Origin: Terracidiphilus sp.
GTDB taxonomy: Bacteria > Acidobacteriota > Terriglobia > Terriglobales > Acidobacteriaceae
Direction: 5' to 3'
Assembly (NCBI GenBank): GCA_050013695.1
Contig: JBEKET010000013.1
Span: 17,917 to 81,916 of the forward strand
Length of the DNA: 64,000 nt
In this document: positions 11,026 through 28,614 of the stretch, piece after piece
Layout: each line of letters opens with the position of its first letter
How positions within the stretch are numbered: the first letter of the stretch is position 1
Notes under the pieces: generated by a model
What the model was told of the DNA's origin: nothing
Databases searched by the model: none
Seen by the model: only the letters and a program-made list of their open reading frames with translations
Made by a program: the position numbers and the translations under genes

Positions 11026-11796
11026 TCAGTCTCCAATTCCCAATCCTTTCTCAAGAGGAATCACATCGTGATTGCGAATGTCTCGCGCGGGTTTGAGAAC
11101 GTGAGAAGAATTCGTGCGGTCCCAGCGTCTCATCGCCGTTTGCAGCAGAAAGCGCAGGTCGGAGAGGGGCGTGGCCTCGGCCATGTAGCGCTCATCGAGG
11201 TTTTGCTTCAGAGGGAGGAGGACATCGCGGCAGTAGTCTTCCAATTTGCCTTCAGGGATTCCGGCCAGGAAGACTTCCTCCTGGGCAAACGCGATGGTTG
11301 CCGCACCCGTAATCCCCGGCCGGCAACTTGACACCCTGGTCAGCTGTTCCGGGACTTTGGGTCGCGGTCCCACAAGGCTCATGTCACCCCGCATCACGTT
11401 GATGAATTGAGGCAACTCATCAAGTTTCCACCACCGCAGGAACCTGCCTGGATTGGTAATTGCCGGATCGTTGATAGTTGTAATCAGGGTTCGTCTCTCG
11501 CTGGAGAGATGCATGGTTCTGAACTTGTAGATTGTGAAAGAAATTCCGTTGCGTCCCACTCTTTTTTGCCGGAACAGAACCGGCCCTCTTGAGCTGATTC
11601 GAACTGCAATGGCGACGATCAGAAATAGTGGCAACAAAATCGGCAGCATCGCAAACACCAGCACAAGGTCAAAGACACGCTTTGCAGGAGACTGCACCCA
11701 TGCGCTGAGGCGCTCCGGCTTCGAGCGATCAACAACAATTTCTGTTGAAGGCTCGGGTCCAAGCACGGGATGCAGAACATTCTGGGCATCGCTCAA
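11026..11796 (-). CDS. Bacterial sugar transferase (priming/phosphoglycosyl transferase, WcaJ/PglC-type catalytic domain)
   Basis: AKRVFDL, one TM, GPVLFRQKRVG, KFRTM, KLDELPQFINVMRGDMSLVGPRP, RPGITG. Probable TTG start 11796 after GGAGG. Confidence 0.9.
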   Translation of the reverse strand: MSDAQNVLHPVLGPEPSTEIVVDRSKPERLSAWVQSPAKRVFDLVLVFAMLPILLPLFLIVAIAVRISSRGPVLFRQKRVGRNGISFTIYKFRTMHLSSERRTLITTINDPAITNPGRFLRWWKLDELPQFINVMRGDMSLVGPRPKVPEQLTRVSSCRPGITGAATIAFAQEEVFLAGIPEGKLEDYCRDVLLPLKQNLDERYMAEATPLSDLRFLLQTAMRRWDRTNSSHVLKPARDIRNHDVIPLEKGLGIGD

Positions 11797-11894
11797 GCGC
11801 ACCTCCCATATTGCTTTAGAAAACATCGTTTGCAACAGCCAGTACGGGCGCCCGTTGCTTGCGGCCTGCATTCGGTTTCGAGGCACTCAGAGAA

Positions 11895-12197
11895 TCAGGG
11901 ATTCAAGAAACGCAGAATTGCCTTTTCATCCTGTTCGCTGAGCGATGCGCGTACCCGCATGTGGCGCACGACGGTGCCTGAGATCCGCGGCGAGAAACCT
12001 TGTGGCGCGTCATGACAGCGCGAACAATTTTGCTTGAATGCGCGTTCTCCCGGACTGGACTCAGCCGGCGACGAAGCCGGCTTTGATTGCGCCGGAGGCG
12101 TCTGACCGCTTGCCTTGGACGCGAGCGGCTGAGCGCAGAGCGGGAGAATGACTATGGCGCCGCCAAGACACGCGAGAAGTACCAAACTGCTCTTCAT
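11895..12197 (-). CDS. Small monohaem c-type cytochrome, secreted
   Basis: Signal peptide, CSRCH haem motif, downstream HM; ATGA overlap with upstream barrel gene. Confidence 0.85.
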   Translation of the reverse strand: MKSSLVLLACLGGAIVILPLCAQPLASKASGQTPPAQSKPASSPAESSPGERAFKQNCSRCHDAPQGFSPRISGTVVRHMRVRASLSEQDEKAILRFLNP

Positions 12198-13258
12198 TTG
12201 CCCCTCCATGCGGGAAAGAGAAACCGATAGACAATGCCTGTTTGCCAGATGTTTCTATCTCCCGACGAAGAGAACTCGCGGGAATAGCTGGTGTTGATTC
12301 GCACTTCATGGGGCAAACGGTAATCGAGACCGAAGTCCGCCTGCTCTGTATCCGCGCCCGGAAGCCCGTCGTTCGAATCGGGCCGCGAGCGAAATGTTTG
12401 CTGCATGCGAAAGACAGGTTCGAATCTGCCCACAAAACTCTCTTCCCCTTTGAATCGGGATAGGCGGTAATCGGCTTCGATCCAGTACCCGCCCGCATGA
12501 GCACCCCTCGCAAACTCTGAACGCAGCCTGAGCGCGGTGTTTGCCGGTTCCCACCAGACGTGTGCACCCTCAAAGTTTTCGTGAACATTCTGAAGTTGCC
12601 GTCCGTAGGAGGCGCCGACCTCGAATCGGGCAGTAGGGAAGTAAAGGCTCGCTTGCCCGCCGCTGGCTCGCTCAGCTGTGAACTGCTGATTCGTACTGGC
12701 TGCAGAGAAATAGACAGCGTAGTTGGCGGACACATGGTCTGTCGCAAACGCCGATCCGCGCAGCATGCCTCCAACGCTCGACGCGGTTTCCATTGTTCCC
12801 AGGCTGAAAATCAACGGCACGTCTTGAAAATTGCCGATCCAGAGCGGAGTCAAGCGTTCGTTGTACGTGCCGAACGGTGTGAGAAAATCGCCGGCCACAA
12901 CCGTGACATGCTTTGAAGCGAGAAAGTCCCCCTGGAGATATGTCAGTCCCAGGAACAGGTCGCCCTTGTAACCCGGCTGTCCTCCGCCCTTGGGAAAGAA
13001 CGGGTCGAGAATAATGGCGCGGCTCTCAACCAGGATGTGATCCCCGATCGGTGCGGCGAGCACGGGTGAAACTACAGGTATGTAGGTTGTGTTTCCTCCG
13101 TTCGTACTGGTAACAAATCCGACGCCACCAGAGATAAGAGGAACGTTCTGACCCTGACTGTCCTGGGCAGCCGACCCCATCGATGCCATGCAAAACGCCA
13201 GGACCGCCGGAATAGCGTGCCTGGCCAGACTGTGTCGAGACGCTGCAGCAATCAACAT
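12194..13258 (-). CDS. Outer-membrane beta-barrel (porin-like) protein
   Basis: Signal peptide, alternating beta-strand pattern, aromatic C-terminus (GIVYRFLFP). Start uncertain (13258 ATG or 13282). Confidence 0.6.
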   Translation of the reverse strand: MLIAAASRHSLARHAIPAVLAFCMASMGSAAQDSQGQNVPLISGGVGFVTSTNGGNTTYIPVVSPVLAAPIGDHILVESRAIILDPFFPKGGGQPGYKGDLFLGLTYLQGDFLASKHVTVVAGDFLTPFGTYNERLTPLWIGNFQDVPLIFSLGTMETASSVGGMLRGSAFATDHVSANYAVYFSAASTNQQFTAERASGGQASLYFPTARFEVGASYGRQLQNVHENFEGAHVWWEPANTALRLRSEFARGAHAGGYWIEADYRLSRFKGEESFVGRFEPVFRMQQTFRSRPDSNDGLPGADTEQADFGLDYRLPHEVRINTSYSREFSSSGDRNIWQTGIVYRFLFPAWRGK

Positions 13259-13290
13259 GGACTTAGATTCGGCCGATTCCACAATCGATG

Positions 13291-13328
13291 TGTCATGAGA
13301 GCGTCTTGCGAATGTCAGCGCATTGTCA
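13291..13328 (+). promoter_or_regulatory. 11-bp-phased TGTCA array A (OmpR/PhoB-type direct repeats)
   Basis: TGTCA 13291, CGTCT 13302, TGTCA 13313, TGTCA 13324; lies just upstream of the minus-strand barrel/cytochrome operon. Confidence 0.7.
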
Positions 13329-13417
13329 CTTGTGATTGGCGCAGGTCACACATGCTGTCCATCCGTGCTTAAGCGCATGGAGTGCCACGCTGGTACGAGG
13401 CCTGGATTTACTGAGCG

Positions 13418-13455
13418 AGACAAAGTCATGACAATCTCCTGACACAGAGGTGACA
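13418..13455 (-). promoter_or_regulatory. 11-bp-phased TGACA array B
   Basis: AGACA 13418, TGACA 13429, 13440, 13451 on +; putative -10 TAGGCT at 13476-13481, 20 bp downstream. Confidence 0.8.
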
Positions 13456-13563
13456 GCTCGTTTGAATTCCCGGCCTAGGCTCAACAGCATGTAACAGGAC
13501 AAGCGCGAGGGCGTGCGGAGTAGCGCAAATCCCGGGCTACCTCTACAAACGCACAGGAGCAAT

Positions 13564-13929
13564 ATGACGAAGTCCATCGTAGTTTTCTTTGTTCTTGCCG
13601 GCATTTTTTCTCCGGCCCGATTCCTTCTGTCGGAGTATCCAACTGACGCCGCTCCCAAGCGCGTCGAGATCACAGCTAAACGATTTGCTTTCGAACCGGC
13701 CAGCATTGAACTCCAGAAGGGAGTGCCGGTGATTCTCGTTTTGAAAAGCGTCGATGTTCCACACGGCCTTCGCTTTCGCGAGCTGAATGTCGATGTAAAA
13801 GCTCCGAAAGGCGGGAGCGGAGAAGTGCAATTCACTCCGGATAAGGACGGCGATTTTGTGGGTCACTGTTCGGTCTTCTGCGGGTCAGGTCACGGGTCAA
13901 TGTCCATGACGATTCATGTGATCGGATAG
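13564..13929 (+). CDS. Stand-alone secreted cupredoxin with binuclear CuA motif (COX2-like soluble domain)
   Basis: DVPHG His plus C-SVF-C-GSG-H-GS-M (CxxxCxxxHxxM). ATG 13564 after AGGAG; N-terminal signal/anchor. Confidence 0.85.
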   Translation: MTKSIVVFFVLAGIFSPARFLLSEYPTDAAPKRVEITAKRFAFEPASIELQKGVPVILVLKSVDVPHGLRFRELNVDVKAPKGGSGEVQFTPDKDGDFVGHCSVFCGSGHGSMSMTIHVIG

Positions 13930-13931
13930 CA

Positions 13932-14426
13932 ATGCGACGCTTCATGATCATCGCCGCGACTGTTTTTTCGGTAGCTGCGCTGGTGTACTGTGCACTTTTT
14001 TTCGATGGGTGCAAGGCGAAGGCCCCCTCCAAACTCGAAACACGCGTGGTGACTTTGGCTAAACATCAATTCTTCATCGGGAACAAGTCGCAGAGAAATC
14101 CGCTGGCAGTTTCGCCGCAGGTAATCGCGGATGGAAAGGAGGCCTTCTCGCACTATTGTGTGGCTTGCCACGGGATGGATGGCCAAAACACAGGCGTGCC
14201 ATTCGCCGATCGCATGGCTCCGCCGGTGCCATCTCTGGCTTCGCCGGATGTGCAGAGGTACAGCGACGGCCAATTGAAATGGGTGATCGATTACGGTATT
14301 TGGCCTTCAGGAATGCCGGGCTCGAAGGGAACCCTGAGCGACGACGAAATCTGGTCGATCGTCGTCTATCTGCGTCATCTGCCTCCGCCTGGCAGCGTTG
14401 GCGAACCGGAAATGTACAGTCATTGA
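13932..14426 (+). CDS. Membrane-anchored monohaem cytochrome c
   Basis: N-terminal TM, CVACH motif, distal SGMPG Met; starts 2 bp after the CuA gene stop. Confidence 0.85.
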   Translation: MRRFMIIAATVFSVAALVYCALFFDGCKAKAPSKLETRVVTLAKHQFFIGNKSQRNPLAVSPQVIADGKEAFSHYCVACHGMDGQNTGVPFADRMAPPVPSLASPDVQRYSDGQLKWVIDYGIWPSGMPGSKGTLSDDEIWSIVVYLRHLPPPGSVGEPEMYSH

Positions 14427-14431
14427 TTCCT

Positions 14432-15700
14432 ATGAACGTTCTTAAGACTCAATCCGGAGATCGACAGCGGCCCGCTCCGCGCAGGCTGAAGGAAGCGGTC
14501 CTCGCCAGTTTTCGATTTTCTTCCGGCGACGTCACCAATCAATTTCGAAACTATTCACTGAACGATTGGCAGGCGATCCTGGTCTGGCTGGATATCAGCG
14601 GAATGGCTTTGTATTTGCTCGACCGCGTACGGGAGTTGAAGATCGAAGGCAGCGTTCCCGTGCCAATTCGCGAACGCATGCAGTTGAACCTCGAGCGAAA
14701 TCGGGAGCGGACAGCAGCCCTCCTGAGTCATGCAAAGGATGTTGCGAATCGGTTTAAGCAAGCCGGGATTCCCTTTGCGCTGCTGAAGGGAATCACGCTC
14801 ACGCCGGATTCCGTACCCGAGCCGGCACTGCGGTGGCAAACCGACCTTGACTTCCTGGTTGGCGGATCGGATGCGGAAGCCGCAAGTGAGATTCTGCGAA
14901 GCCTCGGCTACACCCTGAACGCAACAAGCGGACGCACGATGGAATTCAGGTCCGGCTCCTCCGGCAAATGGGACCTCGCAAATCTTTATCGGGCGGACAT
15001 CCAGCGATCAATTGAGTTGCATTGTCTGCCGCGTCGTGACGGATCGCAAGACCGTCTGGCGCGCGCGAGCGGCAGGCTATTCGACGGAACAGAGATACCG
15101 GCGCTCTCCGCGGCGGACACTTTTGTGCAGCAGGCCTTGCACTTGATGAAGCATCTGTGCGGGGAGCATACGCGCCTCTCCTGGGTGCTTGAATTCACGC
15201 GGCATCTTCGGTTACGGCAACACGATCACGCATTTTGGAAGGATGTGAGGGCGATTGCAAAGACCGAACCTCAAGCCGGCCTTGCAATAGCGATGTCTGT
15301 TTGGCTCGCGTCCGAAATGTTTGGGTTGAACCTGCCGAGCGCTGTCGATCCATGGGCATCAGATCAAATCCCAGATGGGGTCATCGTCTGGTTGCAGCGC
15401 TATGCCCGTGAACTACTCCTTTCAGATTCGCACGCAAGCAAGCTCTATCTCCTGCTTCGCCGCCAGTTGCCCAACAGGCCCGATGTGAAAGGCACTGCCA
15501 GATTGATGATCCCACTGTGCCTGCCGGCCAGAATTACCGAGCCGGTGCCGGGCGAGACACTGACGGATCGCTTGACCCGCTACCGAATAGAAGCGAGCCA
15601 CAGTTGGCGGCGCCTGTGCTTTCACTTGTTCGAAGGAATTCGGCTCGGTATCGAAACCTTGTGCTGGGAATGGAGAACGCCGAAGGTGCAACAGCGATGA
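14432..15700 (+). CDS. Nucleotidyltransferase-family protein (NTP_transf_5-like)
   Basis: IPFALLKGI...LRWQTDLDFLV (pol-beta-like DxD) and IELH. ATG 14432; ATGA overlap with next gene. Confidence 0.75.
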   Translation: MNVLKTQSGDRQRPAPRRLKEAVLASFRFSSGDVTNQFRNYSLNDWQAILVWLDISGMALYLLDRVRELKIEGSVPVPIRERMQLNLERNRERTAALLSHAKDVANRFKQAGIPFALLKGITLTPDSVPEPALRWQTDLDFLVGGSDAEAASEILRSLGYTLNATSGRTMEFRSGSSGKWDLANLYRADIQRSIELHCLPRRDGSQDRLARASGRLFDGTEIPALSAADTFVQQALHLMKHLCGEHTRLSWVLEFTRHLRLRQHDHAFWKDVRAIAKTEPQAGLAIAMSVWLASEMFGLNLPSAVDPWASDQIPDGVIVWLQRYARELLLSDSHASKLYLLLRRQLPNRPDVKGTARLMIPLCLPARITEPVPGETLTDRLTRYRIEASHSWRRLCFHLFEGIRLGIETLCWEWRTPKVQQR

Positions 15701-18687
15701 TCTTACGCAGAACGAGAAACGTGCTTCGGGTCGTGGCTTTCCCAATCTCCAATGCAGTTGTTTGCCTGGCAATGCTCTGTCTTGCGCCCTCCGTCGCAGC
15801 GCAGACGCAACCCGACCCCACGGTGCAAACCATACCCAACACCAGCGTGCAGGCTCAATCGGACGGCATGTCTGTTTCGCAGCCTGGACCGGGGATGAGC
15901 ATACCTGACAATTCGACGGGGCTCAACTCCTTGGAGAAGCCCACAGAAGATCCACGCAACGTGCTTGGTGCACCTCAGATCATTGCCATTGCACAGCAGA
16001 ACCCCGATGTAATTCTCGAACTCAAGTCCCTGGTGGCCGACCTGGCGCAGGCAAGAGGGATTCCATCACAGGCGGATGGAATTACCGATGATCAGCTTTT
16101 TAGCCAGATCGCCAGAGACAAAGTGTTGCGCGCAAGCATCACTCATTTGCTTTTGGCGCGGGGATATATCTCGGAAGAAGACATTGAGGTTGCGTCGCAG
16201 GAGAACGCGGACGAGAACGACAATCGGGCCGGGTTCGGGGCCCGTGACAAAAGGACGGATGTTGGTTTTGATAATCGCCTGAAGAATCCAGACACCGCGA
16301 ATGTGGCACGGGGGAATGAAGATTTAGCAACTCTTCCGCAATTCGACGATCAGCAATCGCCTTCAAGAACTCGTATCGCAGACAAGCACCAGGAACCAAA
16401 GGTTCAGCCGAACATCACAGATGAGCCGAAGTCGCTTCGCCGGGATGCGCCTTACAATCTGCTTTCGCTCAGGGATCTTTACACTCAGATTCCGGATTCG
16501 CCGGAGCAACTGAAGCGCTTCGGCGCGGAAGTGTTTACTCATCGCGAGACAGCCGTTGACAACTATCGTTCGTCTTCCGCGGTGAATGCAATGCCGCTCG
16601 ACGTTCCGCTCGGTCCGGATTACGTACTGGGGCCGGGAGATGAACTCAGTATCAGCTTGTGGGGCGGGGTATCCGAAAGCTTTACTCGTGCCATTAATCG
16701 CGAAGGAGCCATTTTGCTGCCGGAAGCGGGGCAGATTCAAGTAGCTGGGCTCACGCTGGGAAATGCGCAGGCCGCTATTGGCAATGCTCTGCAGCCTCAG
16801 TTTCGCGACGCGCACGTGGCCGTCACGCTGGCTCGCCTGCGCACCATCAGGATCTATGTGATAGGGGACGTGCAACGTCCTGGCGCATATGACATCAGTT
16901 CACTCGCATCACCGTTGAGCGCGCTCTATGCCGCGGGAGGGCCGACTGCAATCGGTTCGCTGCGCGTAATGCACCACACGCGCAACGGGAATTCGATTGG
17001 TGATATTGATCTCTACGACTTTCTTCTCCATGGAGTTCGGAATGCGGATGATCATCTGCAGGGCGGCGACACTCTTCTCGTTCCGCCGGCAGGGCCGCAA
17101 ATCGCATTCTATGGCGCGGTGAAACGCCCGGCGATTTATGAACTTCGCGATGAAAAGACCCTAGCGGCGGGTCTTGAAGATGCCGGAGGGTTTACCGTTG
17201 CCGCGGAACTGAGCCACATCACGATCGAACGCATCGTGGCCAACCAACACCGCGAAACCATTCCTGTGCAAGCCCCCGCATCCATTGGTCAAGCGAACGA
17301 AGAGAGTAACTTCGCAAATGTGGAATTGAGGGACGGCGATCGCGTTCGGGTTGGCACCGTGCTGCCTTCCAACGAGCGCGTGGTGTATCTCCAGGGACAC
17401 GTGGGCCGCCCCGGCAAGCTGGCTTATCGCGATGGATTGCATCTCGCCGATGTCTTGAAGAGTTATCGCGACTTACTTCCGGAACCGGCAGCAAAGGGAG
17501 AAATTGTCAGGCTTATAGCTCCCGACCTTCACCCGGAAACGATCACATTCAACCTTCCCGACGTGTTGATTGGAAACTCAAATCCATCTCTGCAGCCGTT
17601 CGACACCATCCGGGTTTTCGGCAGGTATGAGCGGGACTCTCCCAACGTAACTATCCAGGGCGAAGTGCAGCATCCGGGCTCCTACCCCATGTTCGACGGT
17701 ATGACTGCTGCTCAATTGGTGCGCGCTGCCGGTGGTTTCAAGCGGGACGCATCGCTCCAGGATGCGGATCTGATCAGCTATCACGTGGTGAACGACTCAG
17801 GCGTCAACATTGAGCGCCGTACTCTCTCGATTGGAGCCGCGGTCCTTCAGAACGATGCGCAGGCCGATTCAGCTCTTCAGCCAGGCGATGTGCTGACCAT
17901 CCATCAACTCACAGGGTGGAACGACATTGGCTCATCCATATTGATCCAGGGTGAAGTTGCGCATCCGGGGAGTTATGGATTCACAGAGGGCGAGCATTTG
18001 AGCGATGTTTTGAGACGCGCTGGAGGGTTTCGCGCCACTGCGTATCCGGAGGGCGCGGTTCTGACTCGCCCAGAAGTTCGCGTGCTTGAAGAAAAGAGCC
18101 GCGAGGAGCTGATTCGTCAGATCGAGACCAGTTCAGCCGCTGCCCGCATGTCTCCTACGATGGCAGCGGGCGATCAAGCGGCAACCCTGCAGCTGATTCA
18201 GCAGCAGCAGGACCAGGTGCTTTCGCGCCTGCGGAGTCAGCCGCCAAGCGGGCGGCTCGTGATTCACATCGACGGATCAATCGATCAATGGGCGGGCACT
18301 GAGGCTGATATTGAAGTGCGGAAGGGCGATGTGTTGCGCATTCCCAAGCGCCCTGGGTTTGTGCTGATCAGCGGCCAGGTGTACAACGCGTCAGCCATAA
18401 CGTTTAGTGCGGGAAAGACTGCCGGGTGGTATCTGGAGCGTGCCGGAGGAGCCACCTCGATCGCGAATCGCAAGGAGATATTTGTCATTCGCGCCAATGG
18501 TTCCGTGGTTGGTCGCCGTTCCGGAGAAGGCTATGGCCAAAATGTTTTGTCGACCAAGCTCGACCCCGGCGATGTGATTGTGGTGCCGCAGAAGATAGTC
18601 GGAACTTCAGTGGTCTGGAGAAACATTCTTGGTGCGGGGCAGATTGCGGCATCGCTTGCGATTGCTGCGGCTGTTGCGGGTCTTTAG
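15697..18687 (+). CDS. Polysaccharide export protein (OPX/Wza-like) with multiple SLBB domains
   Basis: DYVLGPGDELSISLWG export domain, repeated V.GEV..PG.Y SLBB units, LQPGDVL, C-terminal amphipathic helix. Start 15697 from ATGA coupling. Confidence 0.9.
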   Translation: MILRRTRNVLRVVAFPISNAVVCLAMLCLAPSVAAQTQPDPTVQTIPNTSVQAQSDGMSVSQPGPGMSIPDNSTGLNSLEKPTEDPRNVLGAPQIIAIAQQNPDVILELKSLVADLAQARGIPSQADGITDDQLFSQIARDKVLRASITHLLLARGYISEEDIEVASQENADENDNRAGFGARDKRTDVGFDNRLKNPDTANVARGNEDLATLPQFDDQQSPSRTRIADKHQEPKVQPNITDEPKSLRRDAPYNLLSLRDLYTQIPDSPEQLKRFGAEVFTHRETAVDNYRSSSAVNAMPLDVPLGPDYVLGPGDELSISLWGGVSESFTRAINREGAILLPEAGQIQVAGLTLGNAQAAIGNALQPQFRDAHVAVTLARLRTIRIYVIGDVQRPGAYDISSLASPLSALYAAGGPTAIGSLRVMHHTRNGNSIGDIDLYDFLLHGVRNADDHLQGGDTLLVPPAGPQIAFYGAVKRPAIYELRDEKTLAAGLEDAGGFTVAAELSHITIERIVANQHRETIPVQAPASIGQANEESNFANVELRDGDRVRVGTVLPSNERVVYLQGHVGRPGKLAYRDGLHLADVLKSYRDLLPEPAAKGEIVRLIAPDLHPETITFNLPDVLIGNSNPSLQPFDTIRVFGRYERDSPNVTIQGEVQHPGSYPMFDGMTAAQLVRAAGGFKRDASLQDADLISYHVVNDSGVNIERRTLSIGAAVLQNDAQADSALQPGDVLTIHQLTGWNDIGSSILIQGEVAHPGSYGFTEGEHLSDVLRRAGGFRATAYPEGAVLTRPEVRVLEEKSREELIRQIETSSAAARMSPTMAAGDQAATLQLIQQQQDQVLSRLRSQPPSGRLVIHIDGSIDQWAGTEADIEVRKGDVLRIPKRPGFVLISGQVYNASAITFSAGKTAGWYLERAGGATSIANRKEIFVIRANGSVVGRRSGEGYGQNVLSTKLDPGDVIVVPQKIVGTSVVWRNILGAGQIAASLAIAAAVAGL

Positions 18688-18694
18688 GAGCGGC

Positions 18695-20029
18695 ATGACA
18701 GAACCGATTGAATCGCCGGCAAGCATGCCAATGCCCACCGCGGCATCGAATGCGGAAAGCGATGCGAATCTCCGTCCAAATTGGATCACAAACACTTCTG
18801 TCTTGTTGCGGCATAGACGGTTTCTTGCGCGAGCTGTTGGCGTTGCCTTTCTGGTGAATATCGCCATCGCATTTCTCATTCCTAAACAGTTTCAATCGAC
18901 AGCGCGGATCATGCCGCCCGAGAACTCTGGATCAGGAACGGCACTGCTCGCCGCACTGACGGGGCGGGCGCTGGGGGGCGACGCGATTGGAGGTCTTGCC
19001 GCGAGCCTTATTGGAGGCCATAACACAGGTTCTCTTTTTATCGACCTGCTGAAGAGCGATACAATAACCGGCCATCTTGTCGACCGCTTCCAACTCCAAT
19101 CCGTTTATGGCAAAAGATATCGCGTGGACGCATGCAAAGCGCTCGTCCGCCGCACCCGCGTCGAGCAAGACAAGAAGAGCGGAGTTATCACCATCGTCGT
19201 TACGGATGAGAGCGCACAACGCGCGCGTGACATCGCGCAGGCATATCTCGACGAGTTAGACGTGGTTGTCAACCGGACCAACACTTCATCGGCGCATCGC
19301 GAACGAATGTTTATAGAAAACCGATTGTCCGCGGTGAGGGTGAATCTTGACCGGGCACAGGACGCCCTGAGCAACTTTTCCAGTACCAACATGACGGTTG
19401 ATCTTAAGGAACAGACACGCGCGACCGTTGATGCGGCAGCGACGCTCGAGGCAGAGCTCATTACGACGCAGGGAGAGGTGACTTCCCTGGATCAGATTTA
19501 TGGCGACGGCAATGTGCGCGTTCGGGCCGCTCAAGCGCGCGCCGCCAATCTGCGAAAGGAATTGGCAAAGCTGGGAGGCACTTCCGATTCGCTTTCAAAG
19601 GACGTCGATGATGATCCTGAATCGAGGATCGCGAAGAAGAATTCGGATGGCCTCGAGTATCCGGCGCTGCGCCAGTTGCCTCGACTCGCGGTGCCTTACG
19701 CAAATCTCTACCGAAATGTGCGGGTTCAGGAAACTGTTTTCGAACTCCTTACACAGCAATTCGAGATTGCGCAAATTCAGGAAGCCAAAGACATTCCCAT
19801 ATTGAGTGTCATCGATTCTCCGGGCATTGCGGAAAAGAAATCGTTTCCGCCACGGACACTCTTGATCCTGATCCTAACCATCGTTGAAGGCCTCACAGTT
19901 TCAGCGATTATCGTCGTGCGCTTTCACTGGCGAGCCGTCGATCTGAACGATCCGCGGCGCGTGATTGCGGCAGAGGCATCCCATGCTTTTCGGGAGTTTC
20001 TGCGTCGTGCGCGGACTGGCGGGAACTGA
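18695..20029 (+). CDS. Polysaccharide co-polymerase / chain-length regulator (Wzz/GumC-like, no kinase domain)
   Basis: Two TMs flanking a coiled-coil periplasmic region; PKQFQSTARIMPP; VIDSPGIAEKKSFPPR before TM2. Confidence 0.85.
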   Translation: MTEPIESPASMPMPTAASNAESDANLRPNWITNTSVLLRHRRFLARAVGVAFLVNIAIAFLIPKQFQSTARIMPPENSGSGTALLAALTGRALGGDAIGGLAASLIGGHNTGSLFIDLLKSDTITGHLVDRFQLQSVYGKRYRVDACKALVRRTRVEQDKKSGVITIVVTDESAQRARDIAQAYLDELDVVVNRTNTSSAHRERMFIENRLSAVRVNLDRAQDALSNFSSTNMTVDLKEQTRATVDAAATLEAELITTQGEVTSLDQIYGDGNVRVRAAQARAANLRKELAKLGGTSDSLSKDVDDDPESRIAKKNSDGLEYPALRQLPRLAVPYANLYRNVRVQETVFELLTQQFEIAQIQEAKDIPILSVIDSPGIAEKKSFPPRTLLILILTIVEGLTVSAIIVVRFHWRAVDLNDPRRVIAAEASHAFREFLRRARTGGN

Positions 20030-20157
20030 ACCCTTCGATCTCTTGCTTCCGCTTTGGAGCATCACCTTGATCAATTCTTATCTCGGCCAATTAAGACCGA
20101 GTCTGAAGCACAACTTGAACCAGCAACACCGTTCCGCAACGTAAGGAGGGTCCGCAC

Positions 20158-21348
20158 GTGAGAATTGTTATCGCCGCCTTAACCGCTCCATGCAGCCTCA
20201 ACGGCGTCTCGCGGCATGCGGCCAACCTGGCACGCGGTCTGGTGTCTTTGCCCGACCCGCCTGAAGTGCATTTTCTCGCAGGGCAGTGGCAGCGGGAGAT
20301 GTACCCGCCGGCCATTGCACGAACCAATTCGCAATTTCATCTTCACTGGATCCAAATCCCGCGAAGTAACTTCGGCAGGATTGCATGGTATTACCGGGAT
20401 CTTCCATCCATTGCGGCGCAGCTTGAGGCCGACGTGGTGCACATGGCATGTCCAGCCCCGGTGCAACGCCGCGCCTACAAGTGCCCCACTGTCGTCAGCC
20501 TGCACGATCTATACCCGTTTGAGATTCCCAAAAACTTTGGAATCGTAAGGAGTGAAATCAGTCGCCGGTTGATGAGTCAGTGTCTCATGAAAGTTGACGC
20601 GGTTGCTTGTGTATCGGACTTCACCAGGTCGCGGATTTCGCATTGGTTTCCTCCGGAGATCAGCGAAAAGGCACTGACGATTCCCAACTCGGTTACGCCC
20701 ATCTTTGGCGCCGGGACGGCCCCGCAGCAGCTTCGGGGCGGGCAGCCGTTTGTGCTGTGCATTGCGCAGCATCGCCAAAACAAGAATGTTCCGCTGGCGC
20801 TCAGAATCTTCTTCCAGGCGTTGAAAGCGAAAATCCTTCCGGCACATTCCCGGTTTCTTTTACTGGGCATCGCAGGGCCGGACACTCGCAGGATATTGAG
20901 GGATGTCCAAAGCCTGGGCCTGGAAGATCGAGTGCTCACCTTAAGTGGAATCAGCGATCAGGATTTGCAATGGTGCTATCGCAATTGTTCCCTGCTGCTG
21001 GCGCCGTCATCGATTGAGGGCTTTGGGTTGCCTATCGCTGAGGCGTTGATCACCGGTTGTCCGGTAGTGTGCTCCGATATTCCGCCGTTCCGCGAAGTCG
21101 GCGGGAATCGCTGCCACTACATCCGCTTCGGCGATGGTTTGATGAATGAATATCTTGAAGCCATTCGCCAAGCCTTGAGAGATCCGCGTCGATTTGGTGC
21201 GTCGATGCCGCAACTCGCACCTGTTTCGATCGCGGCGAGGTATGTGGACCTTTACCAGCACTTGATAGAGTCCCACAGCGTCTCGCAAAATGGTATGCTA
21301 CGGCATCTCGATTCGGAAACTCGAACGATTGGAGTTCCGGTTGACTGA
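20158..21348 (+). CDS. Glycosyltransferase family 4 (GT-B)
   Basis: SLHDLYP, EGFGLPIAEA (ExFGxxxxE), VVCSDIP. GTG start after AAGGAGG. Confidence 0.9.
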   Translation: MRIVIAALTAPCSLNGVSRHAANLARGLVSLPDPPEVHFLAGQWQREMYPPAIARTNSQFHLHWIQIPRSNFGRIAWYYRDLPSIAAQLEADVVHMACPAPVQRRAYKCPTVVSLHDLYPFEIPKNFGIVRSEISRRLMSQCLMKVDAVACVSDFTRSRISHWFPPEISEKALTIPNSVTPIFGAGTAPQQLRGGQPFVLCIAQHRQNKNVPLALRIFFQALKAKILPAHSRFLLLGIAGPDTRRILRDVQSLGLEDRVLTLSGISDQDLQWCYRNCSLLLAPSSIEGFGLPIAEALITGCPVVCSDIPPFREVGGNRCHYIRFGDGLMNEYLEAIRQALRDPRRFGASMPQLAPVSIAARYVDLYQHLIESHSVSQNGMLRHLDSETRTIGVPVD

Positions 21349-21357: not shown

Positions 21358-21373
21358 TGTCATTGCATTGTCA
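21358..21373 (+). promoter_or_regulatory. Tandem TGTCA box C upstream of the response regulator (putative autoregulatory site)
   Basis: ATTGTCATTGC-ATTGTCATTTT: TGTCA at 21358 and 21369, about 50 bp upstream of the ATG. Confidence 0.7.
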
Positions 21374-21424: not shown

Positions 21425-22162
21425 ATGGCCAGGGAATCGGGTGTTGCCGCAGTCGAGCAGGAGGAAGTGTCTTCTCAAGGAAATCTGGGCGTGATCCTCG
21501 TGGTCGAAGACGACCCAAGGATGCAGCGCGTGCTGACCAGGATGTTCCTCGCGGAGCACTACGATGTCATCACTGCGGGTGACGGACAAACCGGCCTTGA
21601 TCTATTCCGCTCGCGTCATCCCGTCGCCGTCGTACTCGATCTGATCCTGCCGCAGATATCGGGTCGTGAGTTATGCCAAAAGTTCAAAGCAATTTCCAGC
21701 GACACGCCTGTGCTTGTGGTCAGCGCGATTGCGGAAGTGGTAGACAAGGTGCTCCTGCTTGAACTGGGTGCGGACGATTACGTAACCAAGCCCTTCAGTC
21801 CACGCGAACTGATGGCGCGAGTGCAGGCTGCAATCCGCCGCCGGCGCAAGCCCGCCACTGCGACCTCTTTTCATTTTGCGGATTGTGAAGTGGACTTCAA
21901 GAAAATGACGGTTCACCGCAACGGCCATCCGATTCAACTCACTTCACATGAGTTCAAACTGCTCAAGTTTTTCACTGACCACGCGGAGCGAGTGCTCAGC
22001 CGCGAAGAACTCCTGAATGAGGTATGGGGCTACAACTGCTATCCGACTACCAGGACCGTTGACAATCAAATCCTCAAGCTTCGGCAGAAACTGGAACCGA
22101 ATCCCACAGACCCCCGCCACCTGCTGACCATCTACGGCGCCGGGTACAAATTCGTTCCCTGA
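21425..22162 (+). CDS. OmpR/PhoB-family response regulator
   Basis: ILVVEDD, VVLDLILP (phospho-Asp), GADDYVTKPF, wHTH with RTVDNQILKLRQKLE and TIYGAGYKF. ATG 21425 after GGAGG. Confidence 0.95.
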   Translation: MARESGVAAVEQEEVSSQGNLGVILVVEDDPRMQRVLTRMFLAEHYDVITAGDGQTGLDLFRSRHPVAVVLDLILPQISGRELCQKFKAISSDTPVLVVSAIAEVVDKVLLLELGADDYVTKPFSPRELMARVQAAIRRRRKPATATSFHFADCEVDFKKMTVHRNGHPIQLTSHEFKLLKFFTDHAERVLSREELLNEVWGYNCYPTTRTVDNQILKLRQKLEPNPTDPRHLLTIYGAGYKFVP

Positions 22163-22167
22163 TTGAG

Positions 22168-24006
22168 ATGGTGGACGGACCGATCACAAGCGCTTCCACG
22201 ACGGCAAGCAATTCTCCCAAAGAGAATAGGGGACTGCGCACGCGTGTCCTGCTGACGCTCGCCATGGCCGGCATCATTGCAGGCACCACGGTGGTGAGCG
22301 TGCTGGCGATTCGCCAGCCTCTTCAAGCGCTCTTTGTCAGAAGTGTTTCGTCGGACCTCGACAATTCCATCGCGACTTTTGCGAAGTTTCAAGCGGAGCG
22401 ACTGGTTGCTCTCGACCGTGAAAATGCGCTGTTGGCCGACCTGCCGGACCTCAGGGCCCTGATGACGACTAACGATGAAAGGACAATCGATGACGGCGCA
22501 GTGAGGTTCTGGAAGTTGAGTGGATCAGATCTGTTCGCGCTCGCTGACACCAATGGGCATATCGTCGCGGCGTTTAATAGTGCGTCGTCCGCCGGACAGC
22601 CTTTGCGGAAGGATTTGCGGGCGTATGTGAGCGGCGCACCGACTCCGTTCCTGGTGAGCGGAAATCACTTGTTCGGTTGCTCTGTCAGGCCCATCTATTT
22701 CGGCAGCCAATCGGAAGGCACCGTTCTTGGGTACGTCATCAGCGGATTCGCCATCGATCGCGCCGCTGTTGAACAGCTGAGCCAGGCAACTGGCGTGAAT
22801 GCGTCCTTCTTGTCCGGCGATCTCCTGCTGGCTAGTTCGTTCAAACCGGCATTGGAGACGCAGATGTCGACTGTGCATGTGCCTGCCGCAAATCATCCGG
22901 AGGAGCCGTTCAAGATTGTACTTGGCGGTGAATCGTATTTGGCCGTCGTGCGCATTCTCTCGATGAATGATTCTGTTCCGTTGCGGTTGATCGAATTGAA
23001 ATCTCTCAATCAGGAAGAGCGGACCATTCGCCAGATTGACCGCATCGTGCTCTCAGCGGGGCTGCTGGCCCTGGTGCTTGGAACGGCTTTGATGTTCCTG
23101 CTCTCACGCGCCGTGACACGCCCGCTGGAGGAACTGGCAGCCGGCGTGCGAGCGTTTGCCGAAGGGGACAGTGCGTATCTGTTGCCCTATCGAGGCACCC
23201 GCGAGGTGCGTGAGTTGAGCGCCGCTTTCGGCGGAATGCGGAAGGAAATCCTGCAAGCCAACCAATCTCTTTTGGAATCGGAACGGCTGGCCACCATTGG
23301 CCGCATGGCTAGCTCGGTTTCTCACGACCTGCGCCACTATCTCGCCGCGGTCTACGCAAATGCGGAATTCCTCGCCACCGGTAACCTCACAATAGAGGAT
23401 CGCAACGAGATTCTTGGCGAGATTCGATCGGCGGTGAACGGTACGACTGACCTGTTGGAATCCCTCCTGATTATCAGCAGATCAGGGCCCGGCATTCGCA
23501 GATCACAGTACCTTGTTGCCTCAGCCGTCGAGAAGGTGATGGGTATGATCCACGCGCATCCCGACGCTGCTGGTGTGCAGTTCTCAGTTCACCTCTGCAA
23601 TCCGGATTTGACCAGTGCCGTCATCGACGCGACGCAGGTCGAACGTGCCGTGTTTAATCTTTTGTTGAACGCGTGCCAGGCACCGCGTTCCACAGACGCC
23701 GCGCCCACTGTCTCGATCGATCTCGAGGCGTATGAGACGGAGGTCGTCATTGAAGTAACAGACAACGGAGATGGAGTTCCAGTCGGAATTCGCAACACTC
23801 TCTTCGACCCATTCATCAGCGAGGGGAAACAGAAGGGCTCGGGCCTGGGACTGACATTGACTCAATGCATTGCCGTTGAACACGGCGGCAACGTCACCCT
23901 GGTGCGCAGCAGCCCGGGTGAGACGGTCTTTCGCATGTCAATCACGAGGAGTGGCGATGCGCCTCTCACGCTGACTTCGACTCGTACTGAAATGGAGATG
24001 TTATGA
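22168..24006 (+). CDS. Sensor histidine kinase (periplasmic domain, HAMP, HisKA, HATPase)
   Basis: Two TMs, HAMP (VTRPLEELA), H-box SHDLRH, NLLLNA, DNGDG, GSGLGL. Confidence 0.95.
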   Translation: MVDGPITSASTTASNSPKENRGLRTRVLLTLAMAGIIAGTTVVSVLAIRQPLQALFVRSVSSDLDNSIATFAKFQAERLVALDRENALLADLPDLRALMTTNDERTIDDGAVRFWKLSGSDLFALADTNGHIVAAFNSASSAGQPLRKDLRAYVSGAPTPFLVSGNHLFGCSVRPIYFGSQSEGTVLGYVISGFAIDRAAVEQLSQATGVNASFLSGDLLLASSFKPALETQMSTVHVPAANHPEEPFKIVLGGESYLAVVRILSMNDSVPLRLIELKSLNQEERTIRQIDRIVLSAGLLALVLGTALMFLLSRAVTRPLEELAAGVRAFAEGDSAYLLPYRGTREVRELSAAFGGMRKEILQANQSLLESERLATIGRMASSVSHDLRHYLAAVYANAEFLATGNLTIEDRNEILGEIRSAVNGTTDLLESLLIISRSGPGIRRSQYLVASAVEKVMGMIHAHPDAAGVQFSVHLCNPDLTSAVIDATQVERAVFNLLLNACQAPRSTDAAPTVSIDLEAYETEVVIEVTDNGDGVPVGIRNTLFDPFISEGKQKGSGLGLTLTQCIAVEHGGNVTLVRSSPGETVFRMSITRSGDAPLTLTSTRTEMEML

Positions 24007-25529: not shown

Positions 25530-26260
25530 TGATGTGTGGAGACACTCCAATTCGGATCCGCTGTCTGATGTTCTGCGGATTTGCGTTTCTTTCACTGCTG
25601 GCTGGGGCGCAGGATGCGCAGGCTCCCCGGCTCGCGGAGTTGCATGCGCGCATTGAGCTCGCGCCGCGCCAGATGAAGGGCCATCCTCCCGCGGCAGTCC
25701 TTTGGCTAACGCAGCTTTCTGCCGATGCGGCCAGCCGGACTGTATCTCCCGGCCGCTTCACGCTGGTCCAGAAAAACCGCATGTTCACACCTCACCTGCT
25801 GGTTGTGCCGGTTGGGAGCGTTGTTGCGTTTCCCAACGCCGATCCTTTTTTTCACAACGTCTTTTCCCTATTCAACGGCAAGAGATTCGATCTCGGCCTA
25901 TATGAAGCAGGGAAGTCAAAAGACGTGGTTTTTTCCCGCGAGGGCGTGTCTTACATCTTCTGCAATATTCATCCGGAGATGAGCGCGGTTGTGCTCGCGC
26001 TCTCCACGCCCTATTTTGCCATCGCTGATCAGAACGAAAATGTTCATCTCGACAATATCCCCGCCGGAGAATACGAACTTCACGCGTGGGTCGAGGGACT
26101 GACGCAGCCGGATCTGGATCGCCTGGTGCGGCGCGTACGTCTCGGTCCCGGCAAATCGGAGTCAATCACGCTTGACGCGCGCGACCTTTCGCGTGAGCCG
26201 CCTGGTCATCTGAACAAATTTGGCCAACCGTATGCGCAGCCTGCAAAGCCCGATTACTGA
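25529..26260 (+). CDS. Secreted cupredoxin (type-1 copper) with C-terminal Ig-like domain
   Basis: FPNADPFFHNVFS and FCNIHPEM give His/Cys/His/Met ligands; TGATG coupling. Confidence 0.75.
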   Translation: MMCGDTPIRIRCLMFCGFAFLSLLAGAQDAQAPRLAELHARIELAPRQMKGHPPAAVLWLTQLSADAASRTVSPGRFTLVQKNRMFTPHLLVVPVGSVVAFPNADPFFHNVFSLFNGKRFDLGLYEAGKSKDVVFSREGVSYIFCNIHPEMSAVVLALSTPYFAIADQNENVHLDNIPAGEYELHAWVEGLTQPDLDRLVRRVRLGPGKSESITLDARDLSREPPGHLNKFGQPYAQPAKPDY

Positions 26261-28528: not shown

Positions 28529-28576
28529 GCGTATTCATCCTTAGACTCTGACAGTACAAAGAGTGCGTCGAATGCG

Positions 28577-28614
28577 TGTCAGGACGTAGTCAAATGAATG
28601 TCATCTGTTTGTCA
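28577..28614 (+). promoter_or_regulatory. 11-bp-phased TGTCA array D upstream of the flippase
   Basis: TGTCA 28577, AGTCA 28588, TGTCA 28599, TGTCA 28610; putative minus-strand -10 TACTGT at 28556-28551, 20 bp away. Confidence 0.8.

Follow-up and report, generated by a model that had tools for sequence, protein, structure and literature searches.

Four adjacent envelope genes in the genome of a peat member of the Acidobacteriaceae, encoding an outer-membrane β-barrel (barrel1), a small cytochrome (cytS), a free-standing CuA-type cupredoxin and a second cytochrome c (cytC164), form a conserved module that appears to be an undescribed electron-transfer unit of this lineage, electron transfer being inferred from homology and conserved ligands. 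The module occupies positions 11895-14426 of the window, that is, the whole 64,000-nt stretch of DNA analysed (Terracidiphilus sp., assembly GCA_050013695.1, contig JBEKET010000013.1, 17,917 to 81,916, forward strand; Table 1). The best reading, which is considered probable but by no means secure, is that the four genes are the core of a conserved envelope unit transferring electrons between the outer membrane and the respiratory chain, and that in the window lineage this unit shares a regulon with the capsule. Re-reading of the sequence returned the four open reading frames (barrel, CSRCH cytochrome, CuA protein, CVACH cytochrome) at the coordinates given by a first-pass annotation. Homologues of each protein number from the hundreds to the thousands, with E values down to 1e-237, and relatives of the CuA gene are present in 413 species genomes. 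A search of the literature returned no description of such a four-gene unit.

Table 1. Positions of the features in the window
Feature	Position	Strand	Description
Bac_transf initiating sugar-phosphate transferase	11026..11871	-	Same strand as cytS, directly downstream of it
cytS	11895..12197	-	Secreted monohaem c-type cytochrome, ~100 aa (from sequence and ATGA overlap with the barrel)
barrel1	12194..13258	-	Outer-membrane β-barrel, ~16 strands in the predicted model; 354 aa from ATG 13258
Direct repeat TGACAATGCGCTGACA	13313..13328	-	~55 bp upstream of barrel1 start; putative response-regulator box/promoter, no binding data
Triple repeat TGACA-N6-TGACA-N6-TGACA	13429..13455	+	~110 bp upstream of CuA gene
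CuA-type cupredoxin	13564..13929	+	121 aa; ligands H67, C102, C106, H110, M113; PF13473 and PF00116
cytC164	13932..14426	+	Monohaem cytochrome c, CVACH; starts 2 bp past the cupredoxin stop
EPS genes	14432..21348	+	Co-directional with CuA-cytC; small gaps or overlaps
NTP_transf_5	14432-15700	+	EPS block
Wza-like Poly_export/SLBB	~15670-18687	+	EPS block
Wzz-like	~18695-20029	+	EPS block
GT4	20158-21348	+	EPS block
Direct repeat, + strand TTGTCATTGCATTGTCAT	21358..21373	-	Pho-box-like; ~52 bp upstream of RR gene
Two-component system	21425..24006	+	RR and HK genes
OmpR/PhoB-family response regulator (RR)	21425-22162	+	Two-component system
Histidine kinase (HK)	22168-24006	+	Periplasmic CHASE4/Cache-like domain and HAMP
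barrel2	24003..25529	+	Signal peptide, coiled coil, β-barrel ending GYKF
Type-1 copper cupredoxin	25529..26260	+	FFHNVFS...YIFCNIHPEMS; C-terminal CarboxypepD_reg-like domain
WecG-type glycosyltransferase	26166-27494	-	In the 26166..28614 segment
Wzx-like flippase	27179-28528	-	TGACA-N6-TGACA box upstream
TGACA-N6-TGACA box	28599-28614		Upstream of the WecG-type/Wzx-like genes

The conservation of the module was examined in 80 loci, all of them from Acidobacteriaceae of peat, bog and soil, 56 of which make up the full-flank subset. The CuA and cytC164 genes adjoin in 74 of the 80, and the barrel and cytS genes are found together in 45-47, in divergent, co-directional or split arrangement; one locus (L044) carries barrel, cytS, CuA, cytC, RR and HK genes as a single compact co-directional set. 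Loss of synteny in relatives had been named beforehand as an outcome that would refute the module, and it was not seen. Since the homologues are numerous and the gene order recurs across genera, the four-gene set is not a chance neighbourhood. In three divergent relatives (P0254, P0284 and P0391) the barrel and cytS are fused, with the cytS domain at the barrel C-terminus and a linker that lacks any second signal peptide; one such fusion recurs on 8 contigs from several assemblies. CxxCH occurs in 3 of the 150 best representatives of the barrel family, only C-terminally. The gene next after each of the three fusions encodes a CuA-motif cupredoxin; an orthologue of cytC164 (a lipoprotein cytochrome c) then follows after P0284 and P0391, with 49% identity in the one compared, and a DUF5818-like gene, not cytC164, takes this place after P0254 (locus L092). 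Barrel, cytS, cupredoxin and cytC represent the core unit, because the fused relatives keep the CuA cupredoxin and two of them also the cytochrome c.

The known settings of CuA centres are terminal oxidases and N2O reductase. The first-pass annotation had placed a CxxxCxxxHxxM CuA protein 2 bp from a CVACH cytochrome, and both the spacing and all the ligands are borne out. Translation of the cupredoxin starts at ATG 13564, preceded by the ribosome-binding site AGGAG. The protein matches the profiles PF13473 (37.3 bits, cut-off 27) and PF00116 and keeps the full CuA ligand set, an upstream His plus C-x3-C-x3-H-x2-M: H67, C102, C106, H110 and M113 align with H114, C149, C153, H157 and M160 of Thermus ba3 subunit II. 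These five residues are invariant in 26 homologues, and so are two further histidines, H101 and H118. The cupredoxin fold is supported both by the structural model, which reaches pLDDT >90 over residues 31-120 and fits 2cua at 1.2 Å over 89 residues (30% identity to the Thermus CuA domain), and by Foldseek, which returned 2cua, 1ehk and 5ndc at 1.2-1.8 Å and 4hcf as another structural neighbour. Binding of two copper ions is inferred from homology and the conserved ligands. The sequence contains no membrane helix hairpin and no transmembrane anchor, and it begins with a hydrophobic, signal-peptide-like segment of 12-13 residues. Because this N-terminus is short and, among homologues, often ends in AQA- or AQG-type sites, the protein is considered to be free in the periplasm.

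The window cupredoxin thus shares its fold and full ligand set with haem-copper oxidase subunit II (Thermus ba3/caa3) and the CuA domain of N2O reductase, but unlike them it is free and secreted, without an anchor, a catalytic partner domain or a nearby subunit I. In PmoD the CuA-like site arises at a homodimer interface and the motif is different, whereas the window protein retains the canonical single-chain COX2 motif. PmoD is described as a separate copper protein, with a CuA-like site, that occurs in methane and ammonia oxidisers (PMC6189053). Both proteins are small, extracytoplasmic and of cupredoxin type, with a CuA-like centre outside oxidases and N2O reductase. The window cupredoxin belongs to Cupredoxin_1 (PF13473), a family that includes the uncharacterised Bacillus anthracis protein 4hcf/4hcg and has no assigned function. 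The metal site varies among its members, with Met in place of His in a Ralstonia member and Ala in place of the first Cys in a Janthinobacterium member.

The two cytochromes differ in how closely they resemble known proteins. The N-terminus of cytC164 is a hydrophobic, lipoprotein-signal-like segment with a conserved Cys27, orthologues carry the lipoboxes FLGC and LGSC, and the protein is, to judge from these features, probably a lipoprotein. Among solved structures it comes nearest to ActE of alternative complex III (6f0k_E, 1.7e-11; also 6btm_E and 6lod_E), which is likewise monohaem with an N-terminal lipobox Cys and can be accepted as a homologue. In contrast to ActE, cytC164 is encoded outside any act operon (actABCDEF), with the cupredoxin and NTP_transf_5 genes as neighbours. 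For cytS, the likeness to solved cytochromes is only weak: PF13442 scores 20.8 bits, short of its cut-off of 27, and in subunit II of Thermus caa3 the cytochrome c domain is matched only weakly. The protein comprises a signal peptide, a Pro/Ser/Ala-rich linker and a haem domain of ~50 aa with the pattern F..NCSRCH..P.GF.PRISGT..RHMRVRA.L....I..FLNP. Its only CxxCH is CSRCH, and this haem motif is kept across 47 orthologues; haem binding by both cytochromes is an inference. The reading frame spans 11895-12209 (-), and the start calls differ: the JGI protein has 104 aa, from the first ATG, and the Logan protein 100 aa, from the second. The second ATG (12195-12197), with GGAGG ahead of it, is the probable start, and it shares ATGA with the TGA stop of barrel1, as the earlier description of an ATGA-coupled barrel and CSRCH cytochrome had it.

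The barrel itself has no match in Pfam or NCBIfam. Its 2896 homologues are, every one, named hypothetical. It is a member of a small family without a Pfam entry, for which 735 cluster representatives were obtained. It has a signal peptide and the C-terminus ...YRFLFPAWRGK, and an alternative start at 13282 would give 362 aa (range 354-362 aa). The ~16 strands come from an AlphaFold model of low confidence (pLDDT 61), with which Foldseek retrieved the general porins OmpU, OmpF and OprD at TM 0.45-0.57.

The unit is larger than four genes, for the RR, the HK, barrel2 and the type-1 cupredoxin belong to it as well. The barrel2 gene, whose product has no family match, is conserved 3′ of the HK gene in 37 loci. 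The type-1 copper protein has ligands that are at least 95% conserved, homologues named 'methylamine utilization protein' and a match to PDB 5fc9 at 4e-5. The best NCBIfam match of the RR is PhoB (TIGR02154), at 199.5 bits and below the cut-off of 296.2. Against the heavy-metal models TIGR01386/TIGR01387, the RR scores 152.7 (cut-off 279.2) and the HK 72.9 (cut-off 292.55), so that the system does not belong to the known metal-sensing kind (CusRS/CopRS). The capsule link suggested by the first-pass annotation holds in the window lineage, where CuA-cytC stands head-to-tail with the EPS genes and a promoter repeat is common to both operon types. It is lineage-specific, because distant relatives carry the unit without EPS genes. 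A conduit role alone leaves the embedding of the unit in capsule loci unexplained, which counts against the best reading.

The window contains 5 copies of the repeat, TGACA-N6-TGACA, where 0.13 would be expected, and the loci together have 217 in 1.45 Mb; the first 40 loci contain 101 copies, compared with 1 in a single Markov-1 simulation, and none was found in ~118 kb of loci without this two-component system. The copies concentrate upstream of the CuA, barrel1 and RR genes and mark redox and EPS operons alike. The triple repeat precedes CuA in 29 loci, the position of TGACAATGCGCTGACA is kept in 23 of 28 orthologous loci, and a direct repeat lies upstream of the RR gene in 40. These sites are direct repeats with 11-bp spacing, as in the Pho box of PhoB and in OmpR-family regulons, and the one upstream of the RR gene, TTGTCAT-N4-TTGTCAT, resembles the Pho box in spacing and core. 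Contrary to the PhoB system, every cluster encodes its own two-component system, with paralogues in the same genome, and the HK, unlike PhoR, has a large periplasmic CHASE4/Cache-like sensor. In the window lineage, the redox unit, the capsule/EPS genes and the two-component system are concluded to form one regulon, although binding of the RR to the repeats is inferred and there are no expression data.

Under the preferred reading, the porin-like barrel1 and cytS would act together as a porin-cytochrome, the soluble periplasmic cupredoxin with its binuclear CuA-type site would be the shuttle, and the lipid-anchored, ActE-like cytC164 would join the shuttle to alternative complex III, the cytochrome c pool and a terminal oxidase. 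This high-potential relay would connect the respiratory chain with a redox-active substrate located at the outer membrane or outside it. The passage of electrons from protein to protein is inferred, and so are substrate and direction; for the latter, uptake of electrons from reduced metals, for example Fe(II) or Cu(I), seems the more likely, by analogy with Cyc2, rusticyanin, Cyc1 and aa3 oxidase. The cluster's own OmpR/PhoB-type RR would drive the unit and the capsule/EPS regulon through the TGACA-N6-TGACA repeats. The chain has no terminal oxidase, reductase or quinol dehydrogenase in the cluster at either end, and this too counts against the best reading, as do the low confidence of the barrel model, the sub-threshold cytochrome score of cytS, the lack of expression data and a two-component system outside the known metal-sensing kind.

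The nearest known counterparts are the Cyc2/rusticyanin/Cyc1/aa3 chain of Acidithiobacillus and the Cyc2 fused cytochrome-porins of neutrophilic iron oxidisers, which combine a one-haem cytochrome with a ~16-strand outer-membrane porin, as the window does. Further shared parts, as proposed here, are a cupredoxin that shuttles in the periplasm and a c-type cytochrome, associated with the membrane, toward the oxidase, and the carriers are of high-potential types in both; P0254, P0284 and P0391 are true cytochrome-porin fusions and in this respect Cyc2-like. The differences are that the window cytochrome is a separate gene and, when fused in relatives, stands at the barrel C-terminus rather than the N-terminus, that the Cyc2 chain uses a type-1 shuttle site instead of a binuclear CuA motif, and that the window cluster lacks oxidase genes. 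These organisms are not known to oxidise iron. Two established architectures were rejected: a Cyc2-type polypeptide with N-terminal CxxCH and porin, since the window barrel has no CxxCH, and the porin-cytochromes MtrAB, PioAB and MtoAB, in which a ~26-strand barrel holds a decahaem or other multihaem periplasmic cytochrome, since cytS has one CxxCH and the barrel 354 aa and ~16 strands.

A bolder version, for now speculative and rather doubtful, would make the unit a new class of outer-membrane conduit in the abundant Acidobacteriaceae of peat and soil, in which a monohaem porin-cytochrome, split or C-terminally fused, and the first natural free-standing CuA carrier oxidise or reduce extracellular Fe, Mn or Cu and are co-expressed, within one dedicated two-component regulon, with a capsule that traps the product. 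If true, CuA would have a new role, in a soluble single-domain carrier of the periplasm, and spectroscopy an easy target. The monohaem barrel-cytochrome, which some lineages split and others fuse, offers a natural experiment in the construction of porin-cytochromes. Carbon turnover in peat, bog and soil is influenced by the redox chemistry of iron, manganese and humic matter, and an envelope redox unit co-regulated with a capsule would bear on how its carriers handle redox-active metals. The question is open to direct test through the promoter motif and through carriers in culture, among them Terracidiphilus gabretensis S55, Granulicella sp. L46, Acidipila sp. EB88 and Tunturibacter empetritectus.

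The redox proteins could instead serve as sensory input, signalling redox state, oxygen or metal to the CHASE4/Cache-type HK and so setting capsule output, without being a metabolic conduit. The RR gene lies within 10 kb in 51 of the 56 full-flank loci and the HK gene in 50, always on the CuA strand. Further, the type-1 copper homologues of Burkholderiales are encoded directly upstream of dCache_3-HAMP-GGDEF-EAL receptors whose sensor region is homologous to that of the window HK (E 7e-14). Signalling genes also occur near two of the three fused units, an ECF sigma, an anti-sigma and a Ser/Thr kinase in L092 and PAS-HK and RR genes in L096, but the fused units of L093-L095 have none nearby. 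With repeat boxes ahead of them, the CuA and barrel operons look like targets that the regulator controls, even if sensors with autoregulation exist, and an outer-membrane barrel with its own cytochrome exceeds the needs of a periplasmic sensor. On this evidence a purely sensory role is unlikely.

The first-pass annotation had left a choice between a short periplasmic/outer-membrane electron chain and a copper-handling module; synteny supports that inference and does not settle which of the two applies. As copper handling, the cupredoxin would bind or oxidise Cu(I) in the periplasm, the cytochromes would take up the electrons, the barrel would transport copper across the outer membrane and the capsule sequester it, a CopI/CopJ-like function. 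In Ilyobacter polytropus a copper-resistance island on a plasmid encodes a cupredoxin with the full CuA motif, together with two multicopper oxidases and heavy-metal sensors, a Ralstonia relative adjoins a DUF305 protein and an ECF sigma factor, and the cluster has a second copper protein, of type 1. Such distant CuA-motif cupredoxins in copper-resistance contexts favour copper handling and weigh against the best reading. However, CopA, multicopper oxidase and Cus genes are absent from the conserved gene clusters of the 80 loci, the RR and HK fall far below the heavy-metal cut-offs, and a buried CuA site serves electron transfer, not copper exchange, so that this role is regarded as quite improbable.

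It is very hard to credit that the cupredoxin is an orphan oxidase subunit II, with the cytochrome c as its donor and a haem-copper oxidase subunit I encoded elsewhere. Subunit II of ba3 and caa3 gives its best sequence and structure matches, and JGI calls the homologues 'cytochrome c oxidase subunit 2'. Subunit II identity nevertheless does not fit a 121-aa protein with a short signal-peptide-like N-terminus and no transmembrane anchor, present in several copies per genome, each within a different capsule locus, and linked instead to an outer-membrane barrel-cytochrome. Neither the window nor the gene clusters conserved in the 80 loci place a subunit I gene beside it; a scan of gene-like ORFs of at least 450 aa on both strands of the 64-kb window revealed neither COX1 nor NosZ, in agreement with what had been noted earlier.

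Equally far-fetched is an export porin, in which barrel1 would be the β-barrel partner of the Wza-like exporter and its proximity to a cytochrome incidental: the gene does lie in a capsule locus beside the initiating transferase and composite OPX/β-barrel translocons are widespread (PMC9603273, PMC9601211), but a Wzp-type, PgaA/Wzi-like 18-strand barrel syntenic with an OPX gene is not what is found, since barrel1 matches general porins and not PgaA, Wzi or AlgE, its presence is independent of the exporter gene (20/20/15/1 in the 56 full-flank loci), and the three barrel::cytochrome fusions have no EPS genes in the 7-8 kb fetched around them. The terminal hydrophobic helix of the Wza-like exporter, for which Pfam gave no Wza_C call, could cross the membrane unaided. 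Among the relatives of barrel1, Porin_O_P was found in one.

The four ORFs of the unit are arranged as two divergent pairs. On one strand, the outer-membrane beta-barrel gene (barrel1) and the small cytochrome gene (cytS) are joined by an ATGA overlap in which the TGA stop of barrel1 is shared with the second ATG of cytS, an ATG preceded by GGAGG; independent gene callers start cytS either there or at an ATG 12 nt upstream. On the other strand, the gene for a free-standing cupredoxin with a CuA ligand motif ends 2 bp before that of a cytochrome c (cytC164). Both couplings, together with the absence of oxidase subunit I or nosZ nearby, had been described in the first-pass annotation and were borne out; neither COX1 nor NosZ is encoded in the 64-kb window. 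The GC content of the window is about 57%, and its nearest genomes are those of Terracidiphilus-like Acidobacteriaceae. A promoter and terminator scan of positions 10800-15000 gave no match to the sigma-70 consensus and only chance-level terminator-like sites. The same DNA is present in peat, bog, wetland and soil DNA metagenomes, and no RNA sequencing run contains the locus.

Coordinates and properties of the features discussed in the text
Feature	Position	Strand	Remarks
Four-gene unit	11895-14426		Two divergent pairs
barrel1		-	354-362 aa; signal peptide; C-terminus ...YRFLFPAWRGK; cytS downstream
cytS		-	About 100 aa; CSRCH; follows barrel1
CuA cupredoxin	13564-13929	+	121 aa; start ATG at 13564; AGGAG before start
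cytC164		+	164 aa; CVACH
TGACA-N6-TGACA	13313-13328		Upstream of barrel1
TGACA-N6-TGACA, triple repeat	13429-13455		Upstream of the CuA gene
TGACA-N6-TGACA	21358-21373		Upstream of the regulator gene
TGACA-N6-TGACA	28599-28614		Upstream of the flippase operon
Wzz followed by GT4	20029-20158		No Wzy_C-like gene
Response regulator and histidine kinase	21425-24006
barrel2	Within 24003-26260	+	508 aa; after the histidine kinase; coiled-coil plus beta-barrel; ends GYKF; conserved
Type-1 copper protein	~25529-26260	+	About 230 aa; FFHNVFS...YIFCNIHPEMS; CarboxypepD_reg-like tail
Trans_reg_C protein	8609-10846	+	N-terminal OmpR-type winged helix
Trans_reg_C protein	36572-38935	+	N-terminal OmpR-type winged helix
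HPr-kinase-C-like group	29954-34467	-	Edge of capsule locus
Caspase-TPR and cyclase pair	54310-58427	+	4-bp overlap

The strongest evidence that barrel1 and cytS would act as one physical unit came from proteins in which the two are fused. A barrel profile was searched against cluster representatives, and inspection of the best 150 for CxxCH identified three carriers of the motif, in each case at the C-terminus. In two of them, P0254 (421 aa) and P0284 (428 aa), the barrel runs through a short linker into a haem domain of the cytS type, with no signal peptide in between. P0284 was recovered on 8 contigs, three NCBI assemblies among them, and its barrel part is 33% identical to barrel1 of the window (E 1e-53). 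The third carrier, P0243, contains CARCH and was not counted, being a frameshifted chimera; a further search provided another, divergent fusion, P0391 (459 aa). The gene after the fusion encodes in all three cases a cupredoxin of 135-141 aa with the CuA motif (IHSF...QCTVKCGRGHSDM, VHGL...LCTVICSEGHEQM and VHSF...ECTVKCGVGHNNM), and in two of the three loci this is followed by a cytC164 orthologue with a lipobox, one copy of which (locus L093) is 49% identical to that of the window. The fusion loci also demonstrate that barrel and cytS share their unit with the CuA protein and the lipoprotein cytochrome.

Conservation of gene order was analysed by scanning one genome per species for relatives of the cupredoxin, which yielded 413 stretches. 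The best 80 of these loci, all from Acidobacteriaceae, were searched by tblastn with the window proteins, and 56 of them had full 10-kb flanks. Within 10 kb of the CuA gene, cytC164 was found in 74/80 loci (54/56 with full flanks), the response regulator in 67/80 (51/56), the histidine kinase in 64/80 (50/56), barrel1 in 47/80 (40/56), cytS in 47/80 (38/56) and a Wza-like exporter in 45/80 (35/56). Synteny of the four genes, the loss of which in relatives would have refuted the proposed module, therefore holds. Where barrel1 and cytS occur together (45/80 loci), their layout varies: 20 loci have the window's arrangement, divergent from the CuA gene, 11 have cytS immediately before the CuA gene and barrel1 further upstream, 4 are fully co-directional and 10 are arranged otherwise. 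One locus (L044) carries the compact co-directional set barrel-cytS-CuA-cytC-regulator-kinase. Cultured organisms with the unit include Terracidiphilus gabretensis S55 (L019), whose divergent layout matches that of the window, and Granulicella sp. L46. Several metagenome-assembled genomes contain two CuA-cytochrome pairs on separate contigs, each with its own neighbours (L006/L028, L011/L012 and L054/L060), so the unit has paralogues within genomes.

The barrel family is small: a search of 1.84 billion proteins gave 735 representatives at E <= 1e-3. Neither Pfam nor NCBIfam has a match to barrel1, even at E 5 across 32 members; its homologues are named 'hypothetical' everywhere, and one relative bears a Porin_O_P annotation. 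The barrel1 model has about 16 strands (pLDDT 61) and matches general porins. Two homologues (P0260 and P0369) have an N-terminal extension of about 250 aa; it starts with what resembles an AMIN-type domain (VEV.NLE..R.G..TR.EV...), after which comes a low-complexity linker.

The cupredoxin matches Pfam Cupredoxin_1 and COX2, and its residues H67, C102, C106, H110 and M113 align in register with the ligands of the CuA domain of Thermus ba3 subunit II. These five residues are invariant in 26 homologues of 56-85% identity. Two further histidines, H101 (in GHC, immediately before the first Cys) and H118 (in an HV near the C-terminus), lie outside the canonical CuA ligand set and are likewise present in 26/26 homologues. 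The AlphaFold model, in which the domain is confident, fits 2cua and 1ehk to within 1.2-1.3 A; the next structural matches are the CuA domains of N2O reductases and an uncharacterised Cupredoxin_1 protein of Bacillus anthracis (4hcf). The N-terminus is a short hydrophobic stretch that ends, in most homologues, in an AQA/AQG-like site, from which the protein is read as secreted and soluble, and not as a membrane-anchored subunit II. Its partner cytC164 is a class I monohaem protein. Among solved structures, the best match to it is the monohaem subunit ActE of alternative complex III (6f0k_E, 1.7e-11; also 6btm_E and 6lod_E). The conservation of Cys27 at the end of its hydrophobic N-terminus, along with FLGC and LGSC lipoboxes in orthologues, indicates that the predicted anchor of cytC164 is probably a lipid. 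The small cytochrome cytS consists of a signal peptide, a Pro/Ser/Ala-rich linker and a haem domain of about 50 residues; it scores under the Pfam cut-off and shows no more than a weak resemblance to the caa3 subunit II cytochrome domain, and its motif F..NCSRCH..P.GF.PRISGT..RHMRVRA.L is conserved in 47 orthologues.

The three soluble parts are relatives of subunit II CuA, the caa3 cytochrome domain and ActE, all of them from the high-potential end of aerobic chains, and the barrel-cytochrome resembles a small porin-cytochrome in its construction. On these grounds, and by analogy, the favoured reading is that the unit may relay electrons between the outer membrane and the cytochrome c/oxidase part of the respiratory chain, with direction and substrate unknown. 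The CuA protein would act as the periplasmic shuttle, in a layout analogous to Cyc2 -> rusticyanin -> Cyc1 -> aa3 oxidase. One coherent guess is that electrons might be taken up from Fe(II) or Cu(I) and the product bound by the capsule. Porin-cytochromes and cupredoxin shuttles are known kinds; the composition and wiring of this unit appear new. In the literature searched (Acidobacteria cupredoxin/EPS, stand-alone CuA, purple copper operons, Acidobacteriaceae EPS clusters, DUF3034/'methylamine utilization protein', and Cyc2 with Acidobacteria), no publication on the unit, its fused forms or its association with capsule loci was found; neither the EmbRS paper (PMC3684757) nor that on the iron-oxidation network (PMC10654088) covers the unit.

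A sensory role of the unit cannot be excluded. The type-1 copper protein encoded at the end of the cluster matches PDB 5fc9 (4e-5), with ligands at least 95% conserved, and its homologues in Burkholderiales carry the name 'methylamine utilization protein'. Two loci of that order were examined, and in both the homologue lies directly upstream of a dCache_3-HAMP-GGDEF-EAL receptor; the sensor and HAMP region of such a receptor is homologous to its counterpart in the window's kinase (25% over 285 aa, E 7e-14). As far as homology can tell, the copper protein and the sensor domain are therefore a conserved pairing whose outputs differ, which points to the copper protein as a component of the signal input. 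No family match was found for the neighbouring barrel2, and a relationship with DUF3034 was discarded, as there is no similarity between them. A role in copper handling cannot be excluded either, given the contexts, in Ilyobacter and Ralstonia, of small and distant cupredoxins that share the Pfam family of the CuA protein. The metal site varies among these distant proteins: the upstream His is replaced by Met in Ralstonia (L086); the first Cys is Ala in Janthinobacterium (L087), where the gene lies behind a 72-aa c-type cytochrome; and the full CuA motif is retained in Ilyobacter (L088), within a plasmid copper-resistance island. A plasmid match from Cupriavidus falls in an unannotated record. 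An orphan oxidase subunit II is unlikely. JGI names the cupredoxin 'cytochrome c oxidase subunit 2' and NCBI 'cupredoxin domain-containing protein'; a paper on Acidobacteria respiration does not mention an orphan subunit II (PMC8407424).

The CuA and cytC164 genes lead, with few-base gaps or overlaps, into genes for NTP_transf_5, a Poly_export/SLBB exporter, a Wzz-like protein and a GT4 transferase, followed by an OmpR/PhoB-family regulator, a CHASE4-HAMP histidine kinase, barrel2 and finally the type-1 copper protein; on the opposite strand, an initiating sugar transferase follows cytS. The link to capsule synthesis inferred in the first-pass annotation is supported by this arrangement and by a shared promoter repeat, but does not extend to the fusion loci, where no capsule genes were found within the fetched 7-8 kb per side. 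The possibility that barrel1 is the beta-barrel partner of the Wza-like exporter, in the sense of PMC9603273, is argued against by their independent occurrence in the 56 full-flank loci (both in 20, barrel1 only in 20, exporter only in 15, neither in 1).

The repeat was noticed because barrel entries of 405-448 aa, rejected as fusions, proved to be N-terminal over-calls that read through a conserved promoter region upstream of barrel1 containing the direct repeat TGACA-N6-TGACA. It occurs five times in the window (0.13 expected), always at promoter positions of the redox/capsule cluster. Over the 80 loci, 217 repeats were counted in 1.45 Mb, and the first 40 loci contained 101, compared with 1 in a single Markov-1 simulation; none was found in about 118 kb of loci without the two-component system of the cluster. 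Merged sites lie upstream of the CuA gene (33 in gene orientation, 29 as triples), barrel1 (33) and the regulator gene; the 40 at the regulator gene have the orientation that reads TTGTCAT-N4-TTGTCAT. The repeat recurs with a period of 11 bp and is Pho-box-like when read as its reverse complement. Direct repeats with 11-bp spacing are the usual type of site for OmpR/PhoB regulators. Most simply, the regulator encoded in the cluster would govern its own gene together with the redox and capsule operons; its binding to the repeat is inferred. The best model for this regulator is PhoB, with a score below the cut-off, and the regulator-kinase pair is not of the heavy-metal type.

A Wzy_C-like polymerase gene (about 432 aa) on the CuA strand is present in 61/80 related loci; in the closest ones (L006 and L007) it separates Wzz from GT4. 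It is absent from the window locus, where GT4 directly follows Wzz. At the edge of the capsule locus, a 355-aa HPr-kinase-C-like P-loop protein is flanked by an MFS transporter and a 1148-aa outer-membrane protein of TonB-dependent type (CarboxypepD_reg/OMP_b-brl_4). Elsewhere in the window, two Trans_reg_C proteins have the appearance of membrane-bound one-component regulators; PD40/beta-propeller repeats are attached to the winged helix in one and TPR repeats in the other. The gene for a caspase-domain (Peptidase_C14) and TPR protein is immediately followed by, and overlaps, that of a CHASE2-adenylate/guanylate cyclase.
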